Shown here: piece by piece, positions 35,335 through 47,308 of the stretch | How the letters are laid out: each line of letters begins with the position of its first letter | Numbering within the stretch: position 1 is the stretch's first letter | Origin: a virus | Virus record (IMG/VR): IMGVR_UViG_3300009709_000003 | Location: 1 to 64,000 of that record | DNA: 64,000 nt | Strand: one strand, 5' to 3' | Made by a program: the position numbers and the translations under genes | The notes under the pieces: generated by a model | Told to the model about the DNA's origin: nothing | Seen by the model: only the letters and a program-made list of their open reading frames with translations | The model's database searches: none

Positions 35335-35352
35335 ACCGGTTATTAGATGAAG

Positions 35353-35376
35353 GGAGGGTATTAGTATTCTATTCTA
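35353..35376 (-). promoter_or_regulatory. Conserved upstream motif, copy B (TAGAATAGAATACTAATACCCTCC)
   Basis: 19/24 identical to 42069..42092, first 12 nt exact; both copies are intergenic upstream of structural genes. Confidence 0.55.
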
Positions 35377-35391
35377 TTATTTAGGTTATGC

Positions 35392-36306
35392 TTAAGCTTC
35401 AACGGTTTCAGTTGCTTCTTGAGCATCGACCAAGTCTTGGATCTTCTTCTTAGCTAGAGTCTTTGCAGACTTATAGTAACCTTGAGCACGCACACATTCC
35501 CAATCTTCGATCGCCATGTCTGGGATGTCTTCAAGTTCTTGAATCAACTGCATGGCCGGCATACGCTGCTCTTCAGGAAGTTCAGGGTTAACTTGTGCCA
35601 TCAAATGAAGCACGCGACCCTTAATGATCTCATCCATGGAAACTTCTTCTCCACGAACTCGATTACGTTCCCCAAAACGGGCTTCACCATTGGGACCCGA
35701 ACCATCAGACTCGACCACCCCTGGCAGGGGCTTTGGAACAGTAGAGGTAGTGAACGCGCCTTTATTGCTCAAGCGAGCACGTTGGTCTTCTGCAACCGAA
35801 ATAGCGGCATCAATATTGGGCTTACCGTCAGGAGTAGACAAACCTTTAGACACAGCCTTTTTCGTGAAATAGGCTACATACTCCTCGTCGTCCAACAACT
35901 GGAGAACCGGAGGACGACGAGCAAGCAACTTACGCAAGTCCATAGAACGCTTAATCACGTCAAATGGAAAATACTGAGTAAGATTGATCGGATCCCGCAT
36001 GTTAGGAAGCAAAAAAGGTTCGTGCATACCCTGCTCGATAGGGAACGACAGGGAAATTTGTGCTGAAGACAAGTTCTGAATGTAAACATTACGTTCAGTC
36101 TTAAAATACTCTGTGTGATTCAAAATAGCCATTGTTTTTTTCCTTTGTGGATTTTCTATAATATACGTCAACCGAATCGTAAACGGGTCTTTGGAATGGA
36201 TAGTTGCCTTATTCTCTTTTAAGAGTTTACGTGCTGCACTAGAATTCGTTCTTTCAAGGAACGTTCCCGCTGCATCCATTACAAGTACGTCTGAATTCTT
36301 AGACAT
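35392..36306 (-). CDS. PLMP(RRXRR N-terminal)-like domain fused to an uncharacterised phage protein
   Basis: aa 7-48 VLVMDAAGTFLERTNSSAARKLLKENKATIHSKDPFTIRLTY match the IscB/IsrB N-terminal pattern; no RuvC or HNH motifs; internal SD-led start at 36132 (MAILNH). Confidence 0.6.
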   Translation of the reverse strand: MSKNSDVLVMDAAGTFLERTNSSAARKLLKENKATIHSKDPFTIRLTYIIENPQRKKTMAILNHTEYFKTERNVYIQNLSSAQISLSFPIEQGMHEPFLLPNMRDPINLTQYFPFDVIKRSMDLRKLLARRPPVLQLLDDEEYVAYFTKKAVSKGLSTPDGKPNIDAAISVAEDQRARLSNKGAFTTSTVPKPLPGVVESDGSGPNGEARFGERNRVRGEEVSMDEIIKGRVLHLMAQVNPELPEEQRMPAMQLIQELEDIPDMAIEDWECVRAQGYYKSAKTLAKKKIQDLVDAQEATETVEA

Positions 36307-36430
36307 CTACTACAGATAGCCACTGTTTAGACCATGAAGGTCTGGGAGTTTCACCCTGACATACTTTAAGTGTTACCTCAAAGTAGTGTATTGTAGCACT
36401 TTCGTGCTCTCCCTAGCGAAATGCTAGGGG
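36307..36430 (-). ncRNA. Putative structured RNA / 5' leader (five hairpins and a closing stem)
   Basis: CCCTAGC-ATTTC-GCTAGGG; AGCAC-GAAA-GTGCT; TACTTTGAG-GTAACA-CTTAAAGTA; GGG-TGAAACT-CCC; AGACC-TTCAT-GGTCT; long-range pairing GCTACA.ATA.CACT with AGTG.TAT.TGTAGT. Confidence 0.5.
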
Positions 36431-36988
36431 TTATGGGCTAGTGTTGGGGGCGGTGTTGCGAGTAATATTCGCGTAGATAGTATCAATATCAGTAGCTAGA
36501 TGGCTGGTATATGCGATGCCGTGCTTCTCCATAAAGATCTGGAGAAGAGCGGATTTCTCATCGGAATCTTTAGTATCTGAATAGCGACCACGCTGGTCTA
36601 CTTCTGATACACGATGAATGAAATAATTGTGGTAAGTAACACCATACAGTTGTTGAACAATGCGCATATACTGCATAGGAAGGTCTTTGACCAATTGAAA
36701 ACTTTCTGGATTATACACTTGCTCATAAAAAGAACAGAGATAAATAGGACAGTCTGTAATAATAAAATCTACTTTCCCAAACAGAATACTCTCTTTGTGG
36801 CTCTGTTTGCCAAAGAAATAGATCTCATCAAGTGGTCCAGGCATAATGCCGCGATAAGCCCAAGACTTAACATATTCGTTCACAAGTTCTGCAGAGAACC
36901 CATTACTCTTAAGTTTGTGGAAAAGTCCGGCTGCAAGCGTGGATTTACCGGCACCAGCGGCACCAGCAAGATTGATAACAGTAGTCAT
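36431..36988 (-). CDS. P-loop kinase/ATPase (AAA_28/NadR-like)
   Basis: Walker A GAAGAGKST; EYVK; IITD-x-P; GR motif. Confidence 0.8.
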   Translation of the reverse strand: MTTVINLAGAAGAGKSTLAAGLFHKLKSNGFSAELVNEYVKSWAYRGIMPGPLDEIYFFGKQSHKESILFGKVDFIITDCPIYLCSFYEQVYNPESFQLVKDLPMQYMRIVQQLYGVTYHNYFIHRVSEVDQRGRYSDTKDSDEKSALLQIFMEKHGIAYTSHLATDIDTIYANITRNTAPNTSP

Positions 36989-37224
36989 TAATAATCCTTT
37001 TGTTTGTAAATTTCTTTATACTTCTGATCGAACAATTGCATTTGTAGGAGGTGTTTGGTCTGGAGCAGCTCGTGAATGGCAAACGCTACCCCTGGCAGGT
37101 GTGAAGCCGGGGTTAGGTCATGAATGGCTTTAGAAGTCACCGCAAGGGCCTTTTCGAGCATAACTGTGGAGTATCTATGGGTCTCTCTTTTCAAACCGGT
37201 CTTTATGTCGTAAATCTTAGCCAC
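36988..37224 (-). CDS. Hypothetical protein
   Basis: Overlapping operon packing. Confidence 0.5.
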   Translation of the reverse strand: MAKIYDIKTGLKRETHRYSTVMLEKALAVTSKAIHDLTPASHLPGVAFAIHELLQTKHLLQMQLFDQKYKEIYKQKDY

Positions 37225-38299
37225 GCATCACCATACGAGCTAAATCCATGGATGTAGGACGAGACAACGCGATTCCCATACCGTTGCAACACATCCCGAC
37301 ATAGACATTGGTTCGATGAGGCACTTTTTCAACTACGGGTCTACTATTCGGCGTAAATGCCATAATCCCCGACCACCCATAGTCAATTTCAATCTGTTCT
37401 TGTGTAATGTCAGACAATACAGAAAGTAAGTAATCCTTAATTTTATCTGTATTTTCAAATTCTAGAGTGTTCTCGGTGGAAAAACTCTGATTCCGACCAC
37501 CACCAATCAACACCCGATTCCCTATCACCGGTCTAAAATACACGTACCCTTTATCATAATGGGTAGGACAATACACTGGGTTCTGTTTCTTTAAAGGTTT
37601 TGTTACATAAACTTGACCACGCCCAGGCGTGATATTGCCATATTCAGGTAGCAGTTTGCTAGTAAAAGCGTTCGTACAAACAACCAGGTTATTGTATTCT
37701 AAGCGACGACCGTCTTTGAGTTCGACATTCCAGTCATGAATAGCTTTTACTTCTCCATCCAAGAAAGTGACGCTATTTAATTTACACGTTTTATGAAGGT
37801 GCTGTAGAACTTTCACAGGGTCTATCATGTGCTCAAATCGATTTTTGATATACTGGTACTTAAGGTTAAGACCTTTTGGAGCCGTAACGACAGTGTAGTA
37901 TCTCTCCATGTCGCGAGACTCAAGCTCCTTTGCATAATTCACACCACCAGGATCTGCACGTACAACTTCTAGACCTTCACGACAAGAAGGTATAATGCAG
38001 TACTTATCGTACTTATTATATTCATCGTAGAACAACCGAATTCCATCTAGTCGATTGGTAAGAATTTCTCTTGCCTTGCGTTTACCAAGAACTTTTTCGG
38101 TAGCAAGATATTCCTCAAAAGACCCGTAAGTAAGGAACCCAGCGTTGTTTGTAGACGCGCCCTTTAGGCCGTTATCAATCAAAAGTACACACTTACCATT
38201 AACCGCCAATTCCAGCGCGGTCATGCTACCAAGTAGCCCGGCACCGACAACAATGACGTCGTAGGCGTCTCGCTTCATTTGCCAATGTGATGTGTTCAT
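37217..38299 (-). CDS. FAD-dependent oxidoreductase (DAO/glycine oxidase family)
   Basis: DVIVVGAGLLG, GAST-x-NAG, RGQV, WSGIMAFT, C-x-G-x-G. Confidence 0.85.
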   Translation of the reverse strand: MNTSHWQMKRDAYDVIVVGAGLLGSMTALELAVNGKCVLLIDNGLKGASTNNAGFLTYGSFEEYLATEKVLGKRKAREILTNRLDGIRLFYDEYNKYDKYCIIPSCREGLEVVRADPGGVNYAKELESRDMERYYTVVTAPKGLNLKYQYIKNRFEHMIDPVKVLQHLHKTCKLNSVTFLDGEVKAIHDWNVELKDGRRLEYNNLVVCTNAFTSKLLPEYGNITPGRGQVYVTKPLKKQNPVYCPTHYDKGYVYFRPVIGNRVLIGGGRNQSFSTENTLEFENTDKIKDYLLSVLSDITQEQIEIDYGWSGIMAFTPNSRPVVEKVPHRTNVYVGMCCNGMGIALSRPTSMDLARMVMRG

Positions 38300-38300
38300 G

Positions 38301-38684
38301 TTAGTTTACCAAAGAATCGTCTACCTTGGTGTCTTCTTCATCGATGAGAAATTTGAACGTGACGGCTTCTGTAGCGAAAATCTTATCGTCCGGAATATGT
38401 TCCGCATCAAGAGCGTCGATAATCTTTACGTCGCCGTTAGCGTCCTCGACCAAGCAAACATAGTATTGGTCGTAGCCGTATTCAATACCGTCGTTAATTG
38501 TGTCGAGCATTTTATGTGCGATTTCCTCAAGCACACATGGCTCTTCATGTTGGTGATCGGCGTGTTCTTCTAGAACACGAACGGCCCAATTCTCAACAGC
38601 TGCCACTTTCTGTTGGGCTTCGTCGCGTTCAGCAAGAATGTCTTCGATGTCTGCGTCTGTGTAGTGCTTGTATTTTTCCAGCAT
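38301..38684 (-). CDS. Hypothetical acidic protein
   Basis: 127-aa ORF in the operon. Confidence 0.5.
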   Translation of the reverse strand: MLEKYKHYTDADIEDILAERDEAQQKVAAVENWAVRVLEEHADHQHEEPCVLEEIAHKMLDTINDGIEYGYDQYYVCLVEDANGDVKIIDALDAEHIPDDKIFATEAVTFKFLIDEEDTKVDDSLVN

Positions 38685-38714
38685 GCAGCGATATAAGGCA
38701 GGACGACAAACAGA

Positions 38715-38990
38715 TTATCTATTTGAAACGGTTTCCACATTTAACAGCTTGAAGTTAAAGGATCCAGACTTAGCAAATATTTTCAACATATCTAACTCAG
38801 CCGCAGCCGCGCTTACCGCTTCTATGTCATGGTATGATTTATGCCACATTTGATCAGTTATTTCTAACTCTTCGTCGTTTGTGTCATAAAAAGTTATTCC
38901 GCCAGAAAGGTTGCTGGTGGGTACGTATTCATGATTTTCTGGTAGAATCAGCTCCAGGAAGAATACTCTATACTTGAACAATTTCTTCAT
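38715..38990 (-). CDS. Hypothetical protein
   Basis: 91-aa ORF. Confidence 0.45.
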   Translation of the reverse strand: MKKLFKYRVFFLELILPENHEYVPTSNLSGGITFYDTNDEELEITDQMWHKSYHDIEAVSAAAAELDMLKIFAKSGSFNFKLLNVETVSNR

Positions 38991-39020
38991 ATATTATGTA
39001 TAGTTTATTTTACCACCAAA

Positions 39021-39788
39021 TTATATAATAGACCAAATGTATTCAAGAGGCAATTTGTCGCCCTTACTGGAGTTACATTTCGAGCATGCGGGGACTATAT
39101 TGGAAATGGCGTGGGACGAGTTTGAACCATAAAGGATAGGGACTAGATGCTCCTTAGTACGCTTGGTGGGACCTTTACTATTAGTTAGTTCAACATCACA
39201 AAAAGCACAACGATTCTTGAACTCTTCTACACGTGCTGCCCATTCTGCTTTGGTGTGCTTACCAGGGACATTGGCCTTACGGGCGCGACGTACACCCACA
39301 GAGGCCAAGACGGTTGCTTTACGCGCGGGGTCCGTGTTGTATTTTAGTCGATTCTGTTCCTTGCGCAATTCCTTGCCTTCTACACTAAGATTGGCATAAT
39401 AGTTTGCGTTACGTGCCTTAATTTTTTCTTTATTTTCGGGCGTGTTAGCGTTTTGTCTCTTCTTCAAGCGCACTGTGGGTGTATAAACTTCATAGCAACG
39501 CTTACATACGCCAAACGCCGCGTGCTTGTGCTCACTCCAACACCACCAACATTTGATAATTTTACGCTTATGACCATTTGCCTTAACACGAACAGCCCTT
39601 TTTAATTTCTGTTCTGGCGATGAGATATAACACTTATGACACACATCCTTACCAGCTGGTCGTCCTGATCTGCCGCATTTTATACACTGCACTTGCCGTG
39701 ACTTATCGTAACACAATTTACAGAGGCCAAATGCTTCATGTCGCTTTGACTTACCACACATGGAGCATGTAATAATACGTTTAGACAT
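39021..39788 (-). CDS. HNH homing endonuclease with N-terminal Zn-finger repeats
   Basis: CAFC...EHLVP...H-xx-SNIVPACSKCNSSK; three CxxC...CxxC repeats; inserted right after the major capsid gene. Confidence 0.85.
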   Translation of the reverse strand: MSKRIITCSMCGKSKRHEAFGLCKLCYDKSRQVQCIKCGRSGRPAGKDVCHKCYISSPEQKLKRAVRVKANGHKRKIIKCWWCWSEHKHAAFGVCKRCYEVYTPTVRLKKRQNANTPENKEKIKARNANYYANLSVEGKELRKEQNRLKYNTDPARKATVLASVGVRRARKANVPGKHTKAEWAARVEEFKNRCAFCDVELTNSKGPTKRTKEHLVPILYGSNSSHAISNIVPACSKCNSSKGDKLPLEYIWSII

Positions 39789-39794
39789 TTCAAT

Positions 39795-39803
39795 ATTATA
39801 ACA
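39795..39803 (-). promoter_or_regulatory. Extended -10 promoter (TGTTATAAT) for a probably leaderless HNH mRNA
   Basis: Minus strand TGTTATAAT-ATTGAA-ATG with no SD. Confidence 0.45.
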
Positions 39804-39837
39804 CGGTTTAATTTAAGATTAATATGCAGGATACAGA

Positions 39838-39859
39838 TGAGGGGGCTTGCGCCCCCTCA
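39838..39859 (-). terminator. Strong hairpin after the major capsid gene
   Basis: TGAGGGGGC-GCAA-GCCCCCTCA, a perfect 9-bp stem with a GNRA loop; U-tract is weak. Confidence 0.6.
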
Positions 39860-39887
39860 AAAGTTATCAATATTACTTAAGAATTCT

Positions 39888-41102
39888 TTACTTCATAGCT
39901 TTGGAGACTGCACGAGGATTCGCAATACCGAATCCGAGAAGTTCCATAAAGGCCCATCCCTTAGTAGTCCTTCTTTGGTTAAAGTTGTTGAAGGGTTCCG
40001 AGAACAATTCAACACGCACGCCCATTTCGCCCAAGTACTCCGAAGCAGTCGAAGCGTAGACGCTACCAGCGGGAACAACTTCTTCAACACCCGTACCTGC
40101 AGCAGTGATAATCTGCGCATTCAAGATGTTGCCGATGTAACCAGCCAAGATCAACTCGCGCTCCGTCACAGGGTCAACCGAAGCCGCCATCGTGGTCACG
40201 ATGTCCGACAACTCGGCACGGTTGATGAGGAATTTTTCCACCATCAATCGATGACGCTCAACCTGATAGCGAGTAGCTTCAAACGCTGCCACGTTCAAGG
40301 TCGCAAACATCGTCAAGGAGTTAACCGTGGTGGCCGCGCGATCAAGCAACGCCAAACCACGCTTGTCCTCTTCGAGTTCGATTTCCTGACGAGCTGTATC
40401 TTGTGCACGATCCAAGACGTCGTAGTTCATCTGATAGATTTCCTCGATGTCCACCGTGGGGAACGAGGTAATCTTGAACTCCGAGGGCTGAATGTACTTA
40501 CCGTACAAACGGCTCTCAATCGACTGACCGTCTTGACCGATCACCCAAGCGCTCGAACGAACGTCCTTGGCGATACGGAACAATTCACCTTGGCCAAGGG
40601 GACGAACGCGGTACACCTTACGTGCCCAACCTTCGTAATCCACAATGTCCTTGATGGGGAGCAGCAGTTCTTGACCGACAATGGCAAAGCCTTCACCCGT
40701 AGGATCAGACAAAGCCGCAGCCAAAACCTTCTTGCGCTCTTCGGAAGCCATCGAAGTCGATGCCTGACGATAGAACGAAGCGCCCGACTTCTTGGTAACC
40801 GTCTGCAACAGATACGCAATCTGCTTCAGAGCGTCGCCTTTGTCATAAGCGTTGAGTTCACCACCCTTGTCGAACATACGATTGTTCAGGTTGGTGCTAC
40901 CAACGGCTTGACGAATGCCACTACGGGTTTCCTCACCAGCATATGCGGTGGGGTTGAAATCACCAGCGCCGTCGTACACAGTCTCTTCGTGTGCGGCGGT
41001 GAGGTTCTTCTTTTGACGTGCTGCCATCCGGCTCTGACCCGCGTTCGCAGGCGCTGCCCCGGACCCAGCTTGCTTGCGGTACGGATTAATCTGATTAGCC
41101 AT
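39888..41102 (-). CDS. Major capsid protein (HK97 fold, Bxz1-like)
   Basis: PIKDIVDYEGWARK...PLGQGE...FKI...DVLDRAQ...EI-x-x-EED; SD AGGAG; follows the protease and decoration genes. Confidence 0.9.
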   Translation of the reverse strand: MANQINPYRKQAGSGAAPANAGQSRMAARQKKNLTAAHEETVYDGAGDFNPTAYAGEETRSGIRQAVGSTNLNNRMFDKGGELNAYDKGDALKQIAYLLQTVTKKSGASFYRQASTSMASEERKKVLAAALSDPTGEGFAIVGQELLLPIKDIVDYEGWARKVYRVRPLGQGELFRIAKDVRSSAWVIGQDGQSIESRLYGKYIQPSEFKITSFPTVDIEEIYQMNYDVLDRAQDTARQEIELEEDKRGLALLDRAATTVNSLTMFATLNVAAFEATRYQVERHRLMVEKFLINRAELSDIVTTMAASVDPVTERELILAGYIGNILNAQIITAAGTGVEEVVPAGSVYASTASEYLGEMGVRVELFSEPFNNFNQRRTTKGWAFMELLGFGIANPRAVSKAMK

Positions 41103-41143
41103 AATTCTCTTCTCCTAAAACAAAAAGTTTGACAATTAGTTAA

Positions 41144-41166
41144 GGACGGGAGCCATCTCCCGATCC
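41144..41166 (-). promoter_or_regulatory. Intergenic hairpin between decoration and capsid genes
   Basis: GGATCGGGAG-ATGG-CTCCCGTCC; possible mRNA-stabilising or processing element. Confidence 0.45.
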
Positions 41167-41175
41167 GGGTTAAAA

Positions 41176-41961
41176 TCAGGTGATCGGGGTGGGGTCACGG
41201 ACCAAACGCACGCCAAGGAACGGATCGTTCGCAGACGGCAGTTGAATCACATGGCCAACAAACTTACCTTCAGCGGCGTTGTTCGTAAACAAACCAGCCA
41301 AGGCGGGAGTGGCACCACCACAATACAAGTTCTTGCCAACGCCAGTCAGCGAATACGTACGCGACGTATCGTAGCAGGACGTGAACAACACGGAAGCTTC
41401 CGTGATGACCGTAACGCGGCTATTAGCAATAGTCACGTCATCCGTCATGTTCCAGAAGTTACGACCTTCGAAATCAAGATCGCTGGTCTGGAGTTGGAAG
41501 GTATAAGTGGCATACACCGTGGTGGCGAGGGGGATCGCACCAGTCGACACCTGAGTAACCGTACCGTTAGGCAACGAAGCCGTGTAGTCGGTGGTCATCG
41601 CGTAAGTCGTGCCCGTCTCACCAGGAGCAGAGCGAATCACAAGATTGCTGGCTGCGGGGTGTTTCAGGTTAACAGTCGAGTTGGCCGTCGCAAACGCGAT
41701 AGGCTCGTCAACCGACACAGACGTGAAAACGTTGGTTTTGTTCCACTTAGCAACACCGAGAACGCCTTCGCTCGTTGCAGGAACGATGAAACCGTTGGCG
41801 TCCTGAGCAACCAACGAGCCTTGCTCGAAACTTGCCGTCGTGTTAGCAACGTAAAAACCGAGATCTTCCTGAATCACGCAACGACCAAGATCCAAGCCAC
41901 GCTTGAATACGGTGCCATTGAATGCAGCAAGTCCGGCGCTTGAAAGTCCAATACTGCCCAT
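41176..41961 (-). CDS. Capsid decoration/cement protein
   Basis: Between protease and capsid; SD AGGAG; C-terminal VGHVIQLPSANDPFLGV. Confidence 0.65.
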   Translation of the reverse strand: MGSIGLSSAGLAAFNGTVFKRGLDLGRCVIQEDLGFYVANTTASFEQGSLVAQDANGFIVPATSEGVLGVAKWNKTNVFTSVSVDEPIAFATANSTVNLKHPAASNLVIRSAPGETGTTYAMTTDYTASLPNGTVTQVSTGAIPLATTVYATYTFQLQTSDLDFEGRNFWNMTDDVTIANSRVTVITEASVLFTSCYDTSRTYSLTGVGKNLYCGGATPALAGLFTNNAAEGKFVGHVIQLPSANDPFLGVRLVRDPTPIT

Positions 41962-42068
41962 AGCATATACTCCTAAAAGTTGAATAAAATTATGGGCAAT
42001 CTTAGCCCATCGTAAGCTTCAATAGTCTAGTAAGGGTGTTATATTCGCGGAAATATTTAAGACGGAGA

Positions 42069-42092
42069 GGGAAGTAATAATATTCTATTCTA
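42069..42092 (-). promoter_or_regulatory. Conserved upstream motif, copy A (TAGAATAGAATATTATTACTTCCC)
   Basis: Matches 35353..35376; upstream of the decoration/capsid genes. Confidence 0.55.
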
Positions 42093-42108: not shown

Positions 42109-44754
42109 TTAGAATTTGAAGTTTTTGGTGTTCTGGGCCAGATTGCCCACTTTCATACCACCAATTGCTTCACGAATCGAAGCCGCGCGAGTGTCGCGTG
42201 GGGTATCGTCGCTGTTATCGACAGGAGCCACAGTCATATTTCCTGCACGCGCTGCTTGACGAACACTTTCATCATGGGTGGGCTCTGGTTGATACTCAAT
42301 GACCACCGAAGCAGTGCGAATGTTGTTCATGTCAGACTCCACTTGCATGAGAGCTTCATCCGACATTTGCATCACAGACGCCGCACGCTCGAACAAACCG
42401 TCGATAAAAGCCTCCCAAGTAGGCTTGGACGATGCAACTTTCTCGCCAAATGCCGTCTCAATCAGACTGACCGCAGTATGCTGATCCATGGGAACGTATT
42501 CATAGCCTTGACCAAGATCGCGTCCATTGGCCAACACAATGCCAAAAGCTTCCTTCAATGGGGAATGCTCAATATTCATTGCTTGACGACGAGCCACGAA
42601 CTTCAAGGCACGCACCAAGCGATTTTGCAACATATCCATTTCTGCTTTATGCTGAGTCTTCAAGGCAGTTGCTTGTTCAGCCAAACGCGTGTCATAAAGT
42701 TTCGTCAAACGAGCGATATGCTTTTCATGTTCAACTGCGGCGACTTTACCTTGATGGTCGTGGGCCTCTCCGTCCAGCACGCTCTCACTGAGGTCGAAAT
42801 CCTTGCGCTTCTCACGCGTATCGAAATCTCGATCCTTTGTAACATTGAGAGCATGAGGGTCTTTGTCATGCTTCTCATCTTCGACGTCAACCTCACGACC
42901 TTCCAAAGCGTCATCCTTAAGGTCTTTCTCCTCATGGTGCTCTTCGGTGTCCGTATGTTCGCCGCTTTCGGTAGCTGATTCCAACACTTCGCCATCCTGG
43001 CGATCGTCGGTCATGGTCTCATCGCGTTCTTCGTGCGTACTGTTGGTTTCTTGGCGATCCGCATCAAGCATGTCATCGACAGCTTTGTCGAGAACTTGAG
43101 CCAAGTGCAAGCTGGGGACAGCCTTAAACTTTTGCATGGTGGTCGTCAAACCATTGGTTTGGATAGACGCCAAGATGTCATCATTGGTAGTGGCCGATTT
43201 CGACGTGGGATCGACAGGCATTACAAACAGCGTACCAGTTGAATCTGACACGGCGAGATTACCACTTTTGGTGGTCGAAATGGTAAGTTCTTTGTACACT
43301 GAAGCACCTTTAAATTTAGATGATACGATTCGTTTTTTAGTGGTAGTCTTGACATCGTTAGAAAGTGCAGATCCGCCACGTTTAGGTGGAGCATTCACAC
43401 TTTCAGTCGGCTTATTGGTTACTATACCCATCGCGGCAGGGGTGAGTTGTTCACCTTCCTCAGCAGGGGTCAAACCGACATCAGAGGGACTAAGATCTTC
43501 AATAGAAGTACCTTGTTCATCCTCGATTGGATCAGTGGACTTAATATCCACACCGTCGGTGCCGTCACCGATGTTAACAATAACATCAGCTTCTTTATGA
43601 CCGCCCGTCTCTTTGGCAGCAGGAGTGAGTTCCGCGCACCCTTCACAACGAGTGTAGGTGTCACCATCACACATGGGATCAGCGTCTTCCCAACGAGCCA
43701 TCCTACCTTCTGCACATTCTGGACAGAGAATAGGCTTGTCTTGGACCTGAGCAGCTTTGCTCATACTCTTTTCTAGGGCCGCAACTTTTGATTTCAAGAT
43801 AAGTAATTCGCTTTCTTGTGCCAAAGTGTTATTTGAGGCTTCTTTAACAGAAGCAGACAATTTGAGAATCTCATATTGCTCAGCCTTTGGATCGGCTGGG
43901 TCTTGTACGCGCGAATACTCTTCGAATACGACACCTTCACACCATTCAAAAGCTTCAGCTTCTTTCATAGATGAAGCTGTTCGACCATTGGCGTCGTCAA
44001 TGTTTACATACTTAATAGTATATGCAACTGGATTAAAGTCTTCCGCACCTTCGGCGTAAACTTTACCCTTATTCCGAATATGCTTACAAAATTCAGATGC
44101 AGTTGATGCAACATGGTTGCAAACGTTACAACGTGTGCGAGCGCAAGAGCATCCCATCGAACCGTGGCGCAACACACCAGACATGACGCCGTTGGCAAAA
44201 ACTGGGTCTTTCTTAGTGTCAATAGCGACCAGCAATTCTACAAATTCGTCTTTTACGACATGACCACACTTTATGCAGTGCAAACCAGTTTCGGCGTCTC
44301 TAGCCTCTTTAGCTGCAGTTTTAGCGTGACAATTCTCACATTCTGCGGAAGCTGGCGAACGATCATTATACGTGGCATCGAGAATAAAACCGCGTGCAGT
44401 CTTTGGATTATCTGCACGATGTTGAATTTGATGCGGTTTGTACTGATAAGTGCGATAAACTTGTTTACCTAAGCGGTGGTCAAATCGCAACAATTCAGTC
44501 TTATGGAAGGCGTCTTTGTTCTCATTACGAACGTTAGACGTATTACCTCTAATAGCCTCAAAGATGTAGTCTTTTGGATCGGCAGAGATATTGTATTCGT
44601 TAGCTACCAGGTCAAGGGCCGCTTGCACATCGATCTTTTGAGTGCCTTCAAAATAAGCACTTTTACCATTGTAAGCTGCGGACTTTTTAAAATCTTTGCC
44701 ATCAGAGGTGGCAACAGATAACACTTGCACGCCGGCCTGTCTAAAGAATGCCAT
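42109..44754 (-). CDS. Prohead protease / scaffold fusion
   Basis: Start reassigned to MAFFRQAG (44754). NENKDAF...H-x-x-H...GFILD...GSMGC...CNVC...C-x-H...FEEYSRVQDPADP; acidic and coiled-coil C-terminal half; between portal and capsid. Confidence 0.8.
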   Translation of the reverse strand: MAFFRQAGVQVLSVATSDGKDFKKSAAYNGKSAYFEGTQKIDVQAALDLVANEYNISADPKDYIFEAIRGNTSNVRNENKDAFHKTELLRFDHRLGKQVYRTYQYKPHQIQHRADNPKTARGFILDATYNDRSPASAECENCHAKTAAKEARDAETGLHCIKCGHVVKDEFVELLVAIDTKKDPVFANGVMSGVLRHGSMGCSCARTRCNVCNHVASTASEFCKHIRNKGKVYAEGAEDFNPVAYTIKYVNIDDANGRTASSMKEAEAFEWCEGVVFEEYSRVQDPADPKAEQYEILKLSASVKEASNNTLAQESELLILKSKVAALEKSMSKAAQVQDKPILCPECAEGRMARWEDADPMCDGDTYTRCEGCAELTPAAKETGGHKEADVIVNIGDGTDGVDIKSTDPIEDEQGTSIEDLSPSDVGLTPAEEGEQLTPAAMGIVTNKPTESVNAPPKRGGSALSNDVKTTTKKRIVSSKFKGASVYKELTISTTKSGNLAVSDSTGTLFVMPVDPTSKSATTNDDILASIQTNGLTTTMQKFKAVPSLHLAQVLDKAVDDMLDADRQETNSTHEERDETMTDDRQDGEVLESATESGEHTDTEEHHEEKDLKDDALEGREVDVEDEKHDKDPHALNVTKDRDFDTREKRKDFDLSESVLDGEAHDHQGKVAAVEHEKHIARLTKLYDTRLAEQATALKTQHKAEMDMLQNRLVRALKFVARRQAMNIEHSPLKEAFGIVLANGRDLGQGYEYVPMDQHTAVSLIETAFGEKVASSKPTWEAFIDGLFERAASVMQMSDEALMQVESDMNNIRTASVVIEYQPEPTHDESVRQAARAGNMTVAPVDNSDDTPRDTRAASIREAIGGMKVGNLAQNTKNFKF

Positions 44755-44755
44755 G

Positions 44756-44872
44756 TTATTTGTCCTGCTTAGATTTGTTCTTGTCAGTGTCTGGCTTGGA
44801 TTCGGTCGTGGTCGTAGGCACCGAAGTGGCAGTATCAATTGTCGTCGTTTTGCCGTTCTTTTGGAATGCCAT
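44756..44872 (-). CDS. Small protein (38 aa)
   Basis: MAFQKNGKTTTIDTATSVPTTTTESKPDTDKNKSKQDK*; ends 1 nt before the protease ATG. Confidence 0.5.
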   Translation of the reverse strand: MAFQKNGKTTTIDTATSVPTTTTESKPDTDKNKSKQDK

Positions 44873-44944: not shown

Positions 44945-47308
44945 TTACTTATCGTCCAGGAGATCGGAAATATCACCAACCCATCTACTGTCGCCACCAT
45001 TACCATGGCCCACTAAAAGATCAACACTCTCGTGCGTTTTAAATACTTGCTTACCTTTATTCATTACCCTTGCGTTCATGTCTTCATCGCCATAAACACC
45101 GGCATCCTCTGGCATATCTTCTAATAAAGATCGATTTACTTGAGATTTGCCAATACTGATATCCTTAAGGACACCCTCAGCGTCTAGGATACGACGCAAT
45201 GAGGTGAAATCAGCGTGTGGATAGCCTTTATCAGCCAAAAACGTTTCTACACAGTCTAAAGTAGACCAAGTGTCACAATCTTCAATAGCACTCACCAAGT
45301 TGGGAGATTTAAGTTCTTCCCATATTGGAGATTTCGTTTCGCCGCTTTCGAGTAGATTCATCAGTTCATGTACTTCACTGGCACGCCAATTCTTATACTG
45401 ACCATTTTTATCCCAAAGGTCGCTTTTCATGTGTCGAACATATTCATCACGAGTACCACTAGGGCCGTGTTCCTCAGAAGTTTTGTCGGCTGCTGGACCA
45501 GGCGCTCCACCTGGATTTCCTGCCGCACCACCAGCTTCACCTTCTTCAGCTGGTTTACCCTCTTCACTTTCGCCACCGTCTGTAGGTGTAGGACTTGGAG
45601 CACTCATGCCACCACCCGTCGCACCAGGACCACCGTCAATTGCAGAAGCTGGCAAATACTGTTGCAAGCTTTGTTCATATTTTGTTTCTTCGATAATTTT
45701 CTTGGTTTCTTCTTCGAAGTGCTTACCAGCCGCTGCAAACTTGGTGGTTTTAGAGAACTTCAATCCAAGTTGACCTTCGAGAATGTTCATCACATTCACA
45801 AGTTCCGTGTTAACCGTAGAATCTAGCTGTTTTTCCCATTGGATACCCGGAATGATCCATCGATTTTCTTGCTCAATTTCTCTTGCACTACGTTTAACTC
45901 GATAACGACCAGCTAATTCCTTTTTGCTAGGTTTGATCCACCCATTCATCTGGGCCATGGGCTTAAATATTTTCGGAATCAACCACCCATTAACAAAGAA
46001 ATTACGCATTGACTTCATGCGCTGCATGAAGACCGACAAGCCGGTGATAGACGATGCATAATTCGTGTCGCCAGTCAAGAAACCTTTATTAATACCCATG
46101 GCAACAAGCTTGTACTGCTCAATGGTATTAATATGACCGGTAATGTTCATAACTCGTTCTTGCACACCCACCAGTTCAGTTTGAACGCCGTAATGAGTCA
46201 CAATCCAAGCCATAGGATCGACTTCAGCCTGAGCAAGCATTTCAAGCATCTTGCGTTCGTGTTCTGGACCAGGAATCCAACCAGTGGTGGGATTACCCAT
46301 CTTCAACAATTTCAATGGTGCGGCCATACGGCGAGCTGTCTGTAGACTTGCCTCGAAAACCGCATCCTCAAACATCAAAACACGCCACATACGCGAAATA
46401 ATGCTAGTTCCGCGCGTGTCGTATGGGTGCATCTTTCGTGGAATAAAGGTGAAATTAATCGGACTAAGAGGAATGTTCTGGCGGGCCACTAATTTGGCAA
46501 TAAGTTCAGGAGGCATTTGCTCACGAACTTTTCCCAACAAACGGTTGTTAGACGTCAACACTGCTCGTAAACGGTCGTCCGGAATAAATTCAACTACAGG
46601 CTCCATTTTAATGAATGGAGTGCTGATAACTTCAAGTTGGTCTGGGTTGTGCAGAGAAACGTGTGTCCACATACCACGATTTTCATCCCAGAATGCATGA
46701 GGACAAGCCTCCCCCACACCTAGGAACTCTTTAACCATCGATTCAAGTGTAGAGATCACATTGATCTCTTTTAACATTACTTCATAATGTTCTTTAACTT
46801 CACCAGTTACACCTTCACCAGTCAATTGAAAATCAGACCATGGCATGGAACCGTACATGTCAATACAAGTTCCGATGTAAGGATCCAATTTTGTGAACAA
46901 ACGCCAGTAACGATTTGCCAAAATCCGATGTACAGGGTACTGTTGGCGGTCACTCGATCCGAATTCGGGTTGGTATGGTTTCTGGGGGCTAACCATCGAA
47001 CCCCCCATACCCCCATACCCTCCAGCCGGACCGCCATGACCACCCCACCCAGCTGAACCATGTTGTTGTGATGTCTTACCGAACCCCCTGGAATCCCAGC
47101 TAGCTCCCTCTGGGAGTATGTTTGACATGAGGTTCTGAACGGCACCATGCTTGTTAGCTAAACCAGGTAGGAACTTTTCAAACCGCTCGTTTAGGGCTTC
47201 GATCGTTGAGTGAGTTAGACCACTAGGATTAGCATTGTCAGATACAGTCTCTGCCATTGCTTGCTTGCGGACATCACCATACTTGTTGCCTGGTTTGATA
47301 TAGCTCAT
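44945..47308 (-). CDS. Portal protein with C-terminal extension
   Basis: RLFTKLDPYIGTCIDMY, LHNPD, DTRGTSII-x-R, PLKLLKMG; position between terminase and protease. Confidence 0.85.
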   Translation of the reverse strand: MSYIKPGNKYGDVRKQAMAETVSDNANPSGLTHSTIEALNERFEKFLPGLANKHGAVQNLMSNILPEGASWDSRGFGKTSQQHGSAGWGGHGGPAGGYGGMGGSMVSPQKPYQPEFGSSDRQQYPVHRILANRYWRLFTKLDPYIGTCIDMYGSMPWSDFQLTGEGVTGEVKEHYEVMLKEINVISTLESMVKEFLGVGEACPHAFWDENRGMWTHVSLHNPDQLEVISTPFIKMEPVVEFIPDDRLRAVLTSNNRLLGKVREQMPPELIAKLVARQNIPLSPINFTFIPRKMHPYDTRGTSIISRMWRVLMFEDAVFEASLQTARRMAAPLKLLKMGNPTTGWIPGPEHERKMLEMLAQAEVDPMAWIVTHYGVQTELVGVQERVMNITGHINTIEQYKLVAMGINKGFLTGDTNYASSITGLSVFMQRMKSMRNFFVNGWLIPKIFKPMAQMNGWIKPSKKELAGRYRVKRSAREIEQENRWIIPGIQWEKQLDSTVNTELVNVMNILEGQLGLKFSKTTKFAAAGKHFEEETKKIIEETKYEQSLQQYLPASAIDGGPGATGGGMSAPSPTPTDGGESEEGKPAEEGEAGGAAGNPGGAPGPAADKTSEEHGPSGTRDEYVRHMKSDLWDKNGQYKNWRASEVHELMNLLESGETKSPIWEELKSPNLVSAIEDCDTWSTLDCVETFLADKGYPHADFTSLRRILDAEGVLKDISIGKSQVNRSLLEDMPEDAGVYGDEDMNARVMNKGKQVFKTHESVDLLVGHGNGGDSRWVGDISDLLDDK

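Follow-up and report, generated by a model that had tools for sequence, protein, structure and literature searches.

A nuclease-free PLMP domain and a conserved, covarying leader RNA in a phage head operon

A gene in the head operon of the virus IMGVR_UViG_3300009709_000003 encodes a 304-residue protein whose first 56 residues are, by profile comparison and structural modelling, a genuine PLMP domain without a nuclease behind it. Directly upstream lies a five-hairpin leader which, from comparison of related loci, is a conserved and covarying RNA family absent from Rfam. We tentatively read this leader as a cis element that sets the use of the first start codon (ATG1) for a PLMP-tagged long isoform, with PLMP itself as the most likely effector, and put the chance that this reading is right a little short of even. 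PLMP is otherwise known only as a structural, RNA-holding part of IscB and IsrB, ancestors of Cas9. The window analyzed here comprises 64,000 nt of a complete virus record with terminal repeats (160,708 bp). For comparison we collected 37 homologues of the protein and 61 related loci from viral and metagenome contigs, many of the contigs being 130–210 kb long. The features of the protein are as follows.

35392..36306 (–): PLMP-core gene, long isoform from ATG1, 304 aa (ORF; 37 homologues; AF2 model)
36139..36306 (–): PLMP domain, aa 1–56, strand-strand-helix-strand-strand (Pfam, Foldseek, structure superposition, family profile)
Between PLMP (aa 1–53 in the model) and the core: low-confidence linker (AF2 model)
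35758..36129 (–): core N-terminal domain, mixed, aa 60–183 (domain model, pLDDT 90)
Between the core domains (–): disordered linker, aa 184–222 (AF2 model)
35398..35637 (–): core C-terminal helical domain, aa 224–303 (AF2 model)

A PLMP domain on a phage head-module protein

A Pfam search aligned positions 1–50 only, out of 174, of PF14239 (RRXRR) to residues 7–56, scoring 33.4 bits with the full-length protein and 37 bits with aa 1–60 alone (curated cut-off 25 bits), and 20 of the 37 family members match the same profile. In the AF2 model, the domain superposes on TbaIscB (9k30_A) with Z 8.4 and an rmsd of 1.3 Å over 51 aa at 41% identity, and on DtIsrB (8dmb_P) with Z 7.1; the solved OMEGA PLMP structures used for comparison were PDB 9k30, 8dmb, 7xht, and 8csz. 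The best nine Foldseek matches in the PDB are all IscB or IsrB chains, a profile of the family N-termini retrieves IscB chains at E 1.8e-14, and a helix with the sequence ARKLLKxGKA is common to the PLMP-core family and IscB. The P-L-M-P tetrad itself is missing: the window has F-L-E-R at this place, relatives have FLEY or VLSY, and two of them PVSP and VLTP. The domain is taken as a genuine PLMP despite the FLER/FLEY tetrad because the Pfam match, the Foldseek search, the Z 8.4 superposition, and the family-profile match to IscB all point to it. Foldseek also returned a weak fold resemblance to the N-terminal domain of IF3 (6o6d, 5lmn), a likeness of PLMP that has already been published (PMC9581776). 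Here, IF3 gives no sequence-level match, and the IscB/IsrB chains score far better.

The nuclease parts of IscB are missing. No Pfam family for RuvC matches the 304-aa protein, and the remainder of PF14239, which covers the Arg-rich bridge helix and split RuvC, is unmatched. Likewise, Pfam finds no HNH in the window protein or in the family members, and does detect HNH in control IscB proteins. Beyond residue 59 the structure is unrelated to IscB/IsrB. An earlier note, made from the letters of the sequence, had proposed just this arrangement of an N-terminal PLMP domain fused to an unrelated protein with neither RuvC nor HNH, and each part of the proposal is borne out by these searches.

The AF2 model of the whole protein, built with 37 homologues, has a mean pLDDT of 84. 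Pfam and PHROGs gave no match that would indicate a function of the core. Among solved chains, the best for its N-terminal domain aligns 88 residues at an rmsd of 4.1 Å and no more than Z 3.9, the C-terminal domain gives generic helical-bundle matches only (Z 5–6), and the ESM Atlas returned only viral hypothetical proteins and a weak similarity of cNMP-binding-like type (TM about 0.3). In BFVD, the core N-terminal domain matches uncharacterized proteins of the cultured jumbo phages PaBG, Motura, BcepSaruman, Y3, and JA11 (Foldseek E 4e-5 to 1e-3, TM about 0.6). The PaBG, Motura, and BcepSaruman proteins that share the fold are ~200–245 aa long; in Dickeya phage JA11 and Erwinia phage Y3 the fold occupies parts of ~600-aa proteins. 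The capsid proteins of these five phages are distant relatives of the window capsid protein. Genes adjoining the Motura capsid gene were considered as relatives of the core and rejected, having no sequence relationship to it. The jumbo-phage proteins may permit experiments on the role of the core.

The PLMP segment is maintained in the family. Among 16 relatives, differences in the PLMP codons fall 2460/1811/4134 on the first, second, and third positions, and we conclude from this third-position excess that the segment is translated. The in-frame fusion to the core is kept across relatives that are only 30–50% identical. By these comparisons, PLMP is under purifying selection in the phage head operon. 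Four loci carry PLMP as a separate ORF of 64–72 aa just before the core gene (L049:1977-2192, L052:1998-2192, L053:2001-2204, and L307:258-452), which either stops just ahead of the core gene or overlaps it by ATGA; the ATGA overlap, seen in L052, suggests translational coupling. One family member, P0050, has two tandem PLMP domains ahead of the core. Two other loci, L305 and L311, have the core and lack PLMP, and in L311 an HNH gene occupies the place where PLMP would be.

The neighboring genes place the PLMP-core gene in a head module:

44945-47308: portal gene
42109-44838: protease fusion gene
41176-41961: Ig-like protein gene
39888..41102 (–): major capsid gene (phrog_2522 at 6.5e-60)
39021-39788: HNH endonuclease gene, insert after the capsid gene
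37217-38299: FAD-oxidoreductase-like gene, insert after the capsid gene
36431-36988: P-loop kinase-like gene (phrog_2107), insert after the capsid gene, directly upstream of the leader

Downstream of the PLMP-core gene follow a gene for a 155-aa protein and one for a 1958-aa fibre protein. The window capsid protein is 74% identical to the product of the L004 gene that precedes PLMP. Most relatives show the order capsid gene, strong terminator, leader, PLMP gene. In the window, ~3.4 kb (36431-39887(-)) separate the capsid gene from the leader; this insert, which also holds two small ORFs and a 78-aa ORF, is absent from most relatives, and in L003 and L006 only a ~190-aa gene lies between the two. 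A motif, TAGAATAGAATAyTAwTACyyCCCT, occurs upstream of the 155-aa gene (about 35351-35376(-)) and upstream of the Ig-like gene (about 42067-42092(-)) and looks like a phage late promoter. Because it is absent before the PLMP gene, that gene seems to be read from upstream transcripts.

The leader RNA and its place before PLMP genes

The gap upstream of the PLMP gene (36307-36430, 124 nt) starts at the TAA of the P-loop kinase-like gene, and its RNA has the following elements.

36307..36432 (–): structured leader RNA, hairpins P2–P6 and a 22-nt tail, from the stop codon of the upstream gene to ATG1
36409..36430 (–): P2, a stem of 7 bp followed by a bulged A and a C-G pair that closes it (fold, covariation)
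36395..36408 (–): P3, a short hairpin with a GAAA loop (fold, relatives)
36359..36389 (–): P4, a long bulged hairpin (fold, covariation)
36344..36356 (–): P5, a GGG/CCC hairpin with an A-rich loop, UGAAACU (sequence conservation)
36329..36343 (–): P6, a hairpin abutting P5, then a conserved AAAC (covariation)

Folded with small flanks, the leader reaches –49 kcal/mol (z –5.1); dinucleotide-shuffled versions lie at –31.8 ± 3.4, and none of 200 folded as stably. The five consecutive hairpins had been described in the earlier note and are upheld. A long-range stem that the same note had drawn to close several of them is not: it draws on the final codons of the gene upstream, shifts with the flanks included in the fold, and finds no equivalent in the consensus drawn from 20 relatives. 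Each of the 16 closest loci folds separately into the same five hairpins, with differing stem sequences.

A covariance model of hairpins P2–P6 (R1) was built from 10 relatives with the window left out. On the window, R1 matches at 36304-36432(-) over its full length (model positions 1–137; 28.3 bits, E 6.9e-5), with no second match elsewhere in the window. Held-out relatives score 81–110 bits (L002, L006, L007, L009, and L039) and 60–109 bits (L308–L310), L306 scores 18.5 bits, and two IscB/IsrB control loci give no match. R1 found no match at its threshold when run on the whole 160,708-bp genome of the virus, and pattern and hairpin scans of that genome found no second copy of P5 or of a P2-like hairpin. 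The gap before the capsid gene, 41103-41175(-), begins UUUUAACCCGGAUCGGGAGAUGG, which bears a loose likeness to the ACC-hairpin-GAG frame of P2; hairpins of this kind are not enriched in the genome, a scan of which found 2 where 3.6 were expected.

In the R1-guided alignment, 91% of the cells are paired, compared with 40–51% when the partners are slid. Compensatory changes occur in 32 of 37 pairs, and 157 cells are changed on both sides compared with 49 ± 6 after shuffling, a value reached in 0 of 500 shuffles. The structure that the earlier note had set out to check for covariation in homologues is thereby found to be conserved. Such changes affect 6 of 7 pairs in P2 (99% of cells paired in the relatives), 12 of 13 in P4 (96%), and all 6 in P6 (98%), and this comparative evidence supports P2, P4, and P6 very well. 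A P3 hairpin is present in every relative, with a different sequence in each; all 7 of its pairs show double changes, in a register that is poorly aligned (69% paired). P5 is the element of highest sequence conservation, being invariant in clade A. It is common to clade B, where it covaries (GGGC/GCCC, GAGC/GCUC, GGAU/AUCC). The conserved unpaired nucleotides are the ACC...GAG frame of P2 with its bulged A, AAAC (twice), ACAAGGU, GUGYAUG at the start, and the P5 loop.

The leader is shorter in the more distant clade B (L010–L029, L045, and L306; proteins 31–36% identical), where P2 is directly followed by P5 and sometimes by P6. P2 is 90% paired in clade B, and its ACC...GAG frame is kept there as in clade A. 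The clade B alignment is 84% paired, compared with 41–61% when slid, with double changes in 6 of 11 pairs, which gives the structure there modest support. A tail hairpin that would sequester the Shine–Dalgarno sequence (SD; GAGG...CUCU), plausible and like that before the IsrB control ORF, shows one-sided changes only; lacking compensatory changes, it is not claimed.

Every leader copy found, at about 30 distinct loci, directly precedes a PLMP start codon. IMG/VR was scanned with sequence motifs, two of the scans being filtered for the full motif, and among the matches listed the true instances lie only at PLMP-core loci; matches of the pattern scan were mostly due to chance. The PLMP-less loci L305 and L311 have no leader and show short unstructured gaps before the core. 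In the window, the capsid gene retains a GC hairpin of its own (about 39839-39858) and the leader stays flush with the PLMP gene despite the ~3.4-kb insert, which links it to the PLMP gene and not to the capsid gene. The L040 leader is intact (61.7 bits), and its PLMP frame (L040:109-260) has a deletion in the helix region and a frameshift, being either a decaying copy or an assembly error.

The linkage does not run in both directions. In clade C (L041–L054, split forms included), PLMP is present, fused or as a separate ORF, without a structured leader (z +0.4 to –2.7, not significant). Directly before the PLMP start, this clade has TTGCTAGC, about 17 nt, and then TATTAT, a promoter-like arrangement that resembles a sigma-70 promoter in place of the structured leader. 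Because a whole clade keeps PLMP without it, the leader is not an obligate partner of PLMP, and PLMP has a role independent of the leader RNA. Since the loci are phylogenetically related, the association of RNA and PLMP amounts to few independent events.

Two starts in one frame and the role of the leader

A second start lies within the frame of the PLMP-core gene:

36130..36145 (–): AAGGA as internal SD (36141-36145) with the Met59 ATG in frame (36130-36132), where the short isoform, core only, would begin

The AAGGA lies 9 nt upstream of the Met59 ATG in the window, and nearly all relatives have a counterpart of Met59 with AGGAG or GGAGG 7–10 nt upstream. The peptide encoded at the internal SD varies by clade (SSIRRK, DPRED, NKEDK) while the SD stays. 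About half of the database gene calls begin at the Met59 position, as expected from a conserved internal Met with a canonical SD; in the DNA upstream of these proteins the PLMP segment is still in frame, and these starts are therefore gene-calling choices. ATG1 in the window has no SD, lacking the GAGG of relatives. Their first start has GAGG at a distance of 11–14 nt, uses GTG, or is likewise without an SD. A GTG codon or a badly spaced SD would fit weak initiation. The earlier note had remarked on the SD-less ATG and had allowed for use of an internal start; the first observation is correct, and the internal start proves to be a family-wide feature. As judged from its conservation, the in-frame Met59 with its canonical SD implies that two isoforms would be made.

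On the reading that we tentatively favor, one frame of a head-operon gene would give rise to two proteins. Met59, with its strong SD, would yield the core protein as the bulk supply, and ATG1, its SD missing or poorly spaced, a minor long form carrying PLMP on a flexible linker. The leader hairpins P2–P6 would act in cis and set how often ATG1 is used; newly made PLMP would grip the hairpins beside its own start and shut off further initiation, and this feedback would keep the tagged isoform scarce relative to the core form. We infer that the leader controls ATG1 and, because of the precedent of IsrB and IscB, that PLMP binds this leader. In IsrB, PLMP grips SL7/SL8, a tandem pair of hairpins at the omega-RNA 3′ end (PMC9581776, PMC9640706). 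It also contacts the SD that directly precedes the isrB ORF, for which the authors suggest possible expression control (PMC9581776). The IscB PLMP recognizes terminal hairpins mainly without sequence specificity (PMC9581776, PMC9640706).

The leader might instead be a cis element independent of PLMP, such as a riboswitch-like sensor, an RNase III/E processing site, or an mRNA-stabilizing structure uncoupling the gene from the highly expressed capsid gene, with PLMP adjoining it by descent only. This we hold to be unlikely, though a serious contender. Its main point is clade C, where PLMP works without the leader; the leader also follows the capsid terminator in most relatives, long bulged duplexes like P4 are of the type cut by RNase III, and the conserved unpaired nucleotides (AAAC twice, ACAAGGU, and the P5 loop) would equally suit a ligand pocket or a tertiary fold. 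However, a PLMP start follows every instance found and neither PLMP-less member has the leader, which moreover stays with the PLMP gene where the capsid gene is moved away; no family in Rfam, riboswitches included, matches it.

It is improbable that the leader is a stable small RNA, excised or separately made, in a lasting RNP with the PLMP-tagged protein, for instance as procapsid or virion cargo or in assembly. Five hairpins with conserved loops and junctions do exceed the needs of a simple operator, the gene sits in the head module in the order that places it after the capsid gene, PLMP belongs to a stable RNP in IscB/IsrB, and the two tandem PLMP domains of P0050 would suit such a particle. 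Yet the leader in the window runs from the upstream stop codon into ATG1 with no promoter or terminator of its own, clade B retains only P2–P5(–P6), and clade C nothing. That leader and domain are the inert remnant of an IscB/IsrB element, an RNA 3′ end and the first 55 codons fused in frame after the capsid gene, is very improbable. Identity to the PLMP domains of IscB reaches 41%, and homing-type HNH genes insert at the same spot (window 39021-39788; L311). Against this stand the fusion and its third-position excess, kept over relatives 30–50% identical, RNA pairs kept by compensatory changes, and the lack of a HEARO match or of any RuvC, HNH, or TnpA remains; the purifying selection seen disfavors an inert remnant.

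PLMP within and beyond RNA-guided nucleases

The phage locus resembles IscB/IsrB OMEGA systems in having the same PLMP by profile and fold, at the same extreme N-terminal place, and a tandem-hairpin RNA that ends a few nucleotides ahead of PLMP's own start codon. In contrast to those systems, the phage protein has no RuvC, bridge helix, HNH, or TI domain, and the leader is ~125–145 nt long, with no guide and no HEARO or omega match. The gene lies in a phage head operon and not in an IS200/605 element, and the partner of PLMP is unrelated and, given the conserved internal start, would also be made without PLMP. HEARO (RF02033) is matched neither in the window (E up to 10) nor in 7 relatives (E up to 1), while the control IscB/IsrB loci L303 and L302, which were found via the PLMP profile of the phage family, score 125.9 and 28.5 bits. 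Rfam as a whole returned nothing in the window and nothing relevant in the 7 relatives, and ARAGORN found no tRNA or tmRNA in the window. The earlier note had likewise seen no omega-RNA resemblance in the leader. Omega RNAs being diverse, distant descent of the leader from one would be compatible with these results, although it is not detectable. The protein domain can fairly be called part of a domesticated OMEGA module; for the RNA, that name is unproven.

Autogenous translational operators, such as ribosomal-protein leaders, T4 gp32 and RegA, and the MS2 coat-operator pair, are similar in that the protein is encoded directly after a conserved folded leader by the ribosome-binding site and negative feedback is expected. 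The phage case differs in that binding is predicted, only the long isoform would be controlled, the short one having its own strong SD, and the RNA exceeds typical operators in size. Phage genes that give two products from in-frame starts include lambda C/Nu3, S105/S107, and T7 4A/4B, which share with the PLMP-core gene an internal in-frame Met with its own SD, conservation in the family, and, as here, a virion-assembly operon. Unlike in those genes, the N-terminal extension here appears to be a complete, independently folding domain of RNA-binding type, and it is a separate gene in L049, L052, L053, and L307.

No description of PLMP outside IscB/IsrB was found in the literature searched. The PLMP profile found 2652 representatives. 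Among the best 150 of these, 27 belong to the PLMP-core family, about 62 are proteins of ≤110 aa (some of them split PLMP-core forms, some truncated IscB N-termini), and the others are canonical IscB/IsrB, with a few that carry two or three PLMP repeats and no nuclease. P0048, P0052, P0067, and P0163 have two or three tandem PLMP domains without RuvC or HNH. From these sequences, nuclease-free PLMP architectures seem to be wider than described.

It is possible, though we rather doubt it, that PLMP and a short set of hairpins form an autonomous, portable RNA-protein recognition pair outside RNA-guided nucleases, occurring as stand-alone 60–75-aa proteins, tandem repeats, and tags in virion operons, and serving here as a translational operator or as an RNA tether to a head-module protein. 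If so, the contact between PLMP and hairpins could be an older, simpler step by which RuvC nucleases became RNA-bound; alternatively, phages could have borrowed this contact back. The leader itself adds a covarying RNA motif absent from Rfam, and a 58-aa domain with an RNA of ~125 nt makes a small testable system for what PLMP recognizes alone. The finding bears on how RNA-guided nucleases gained their RNA, and on isoform ratios in large phages.
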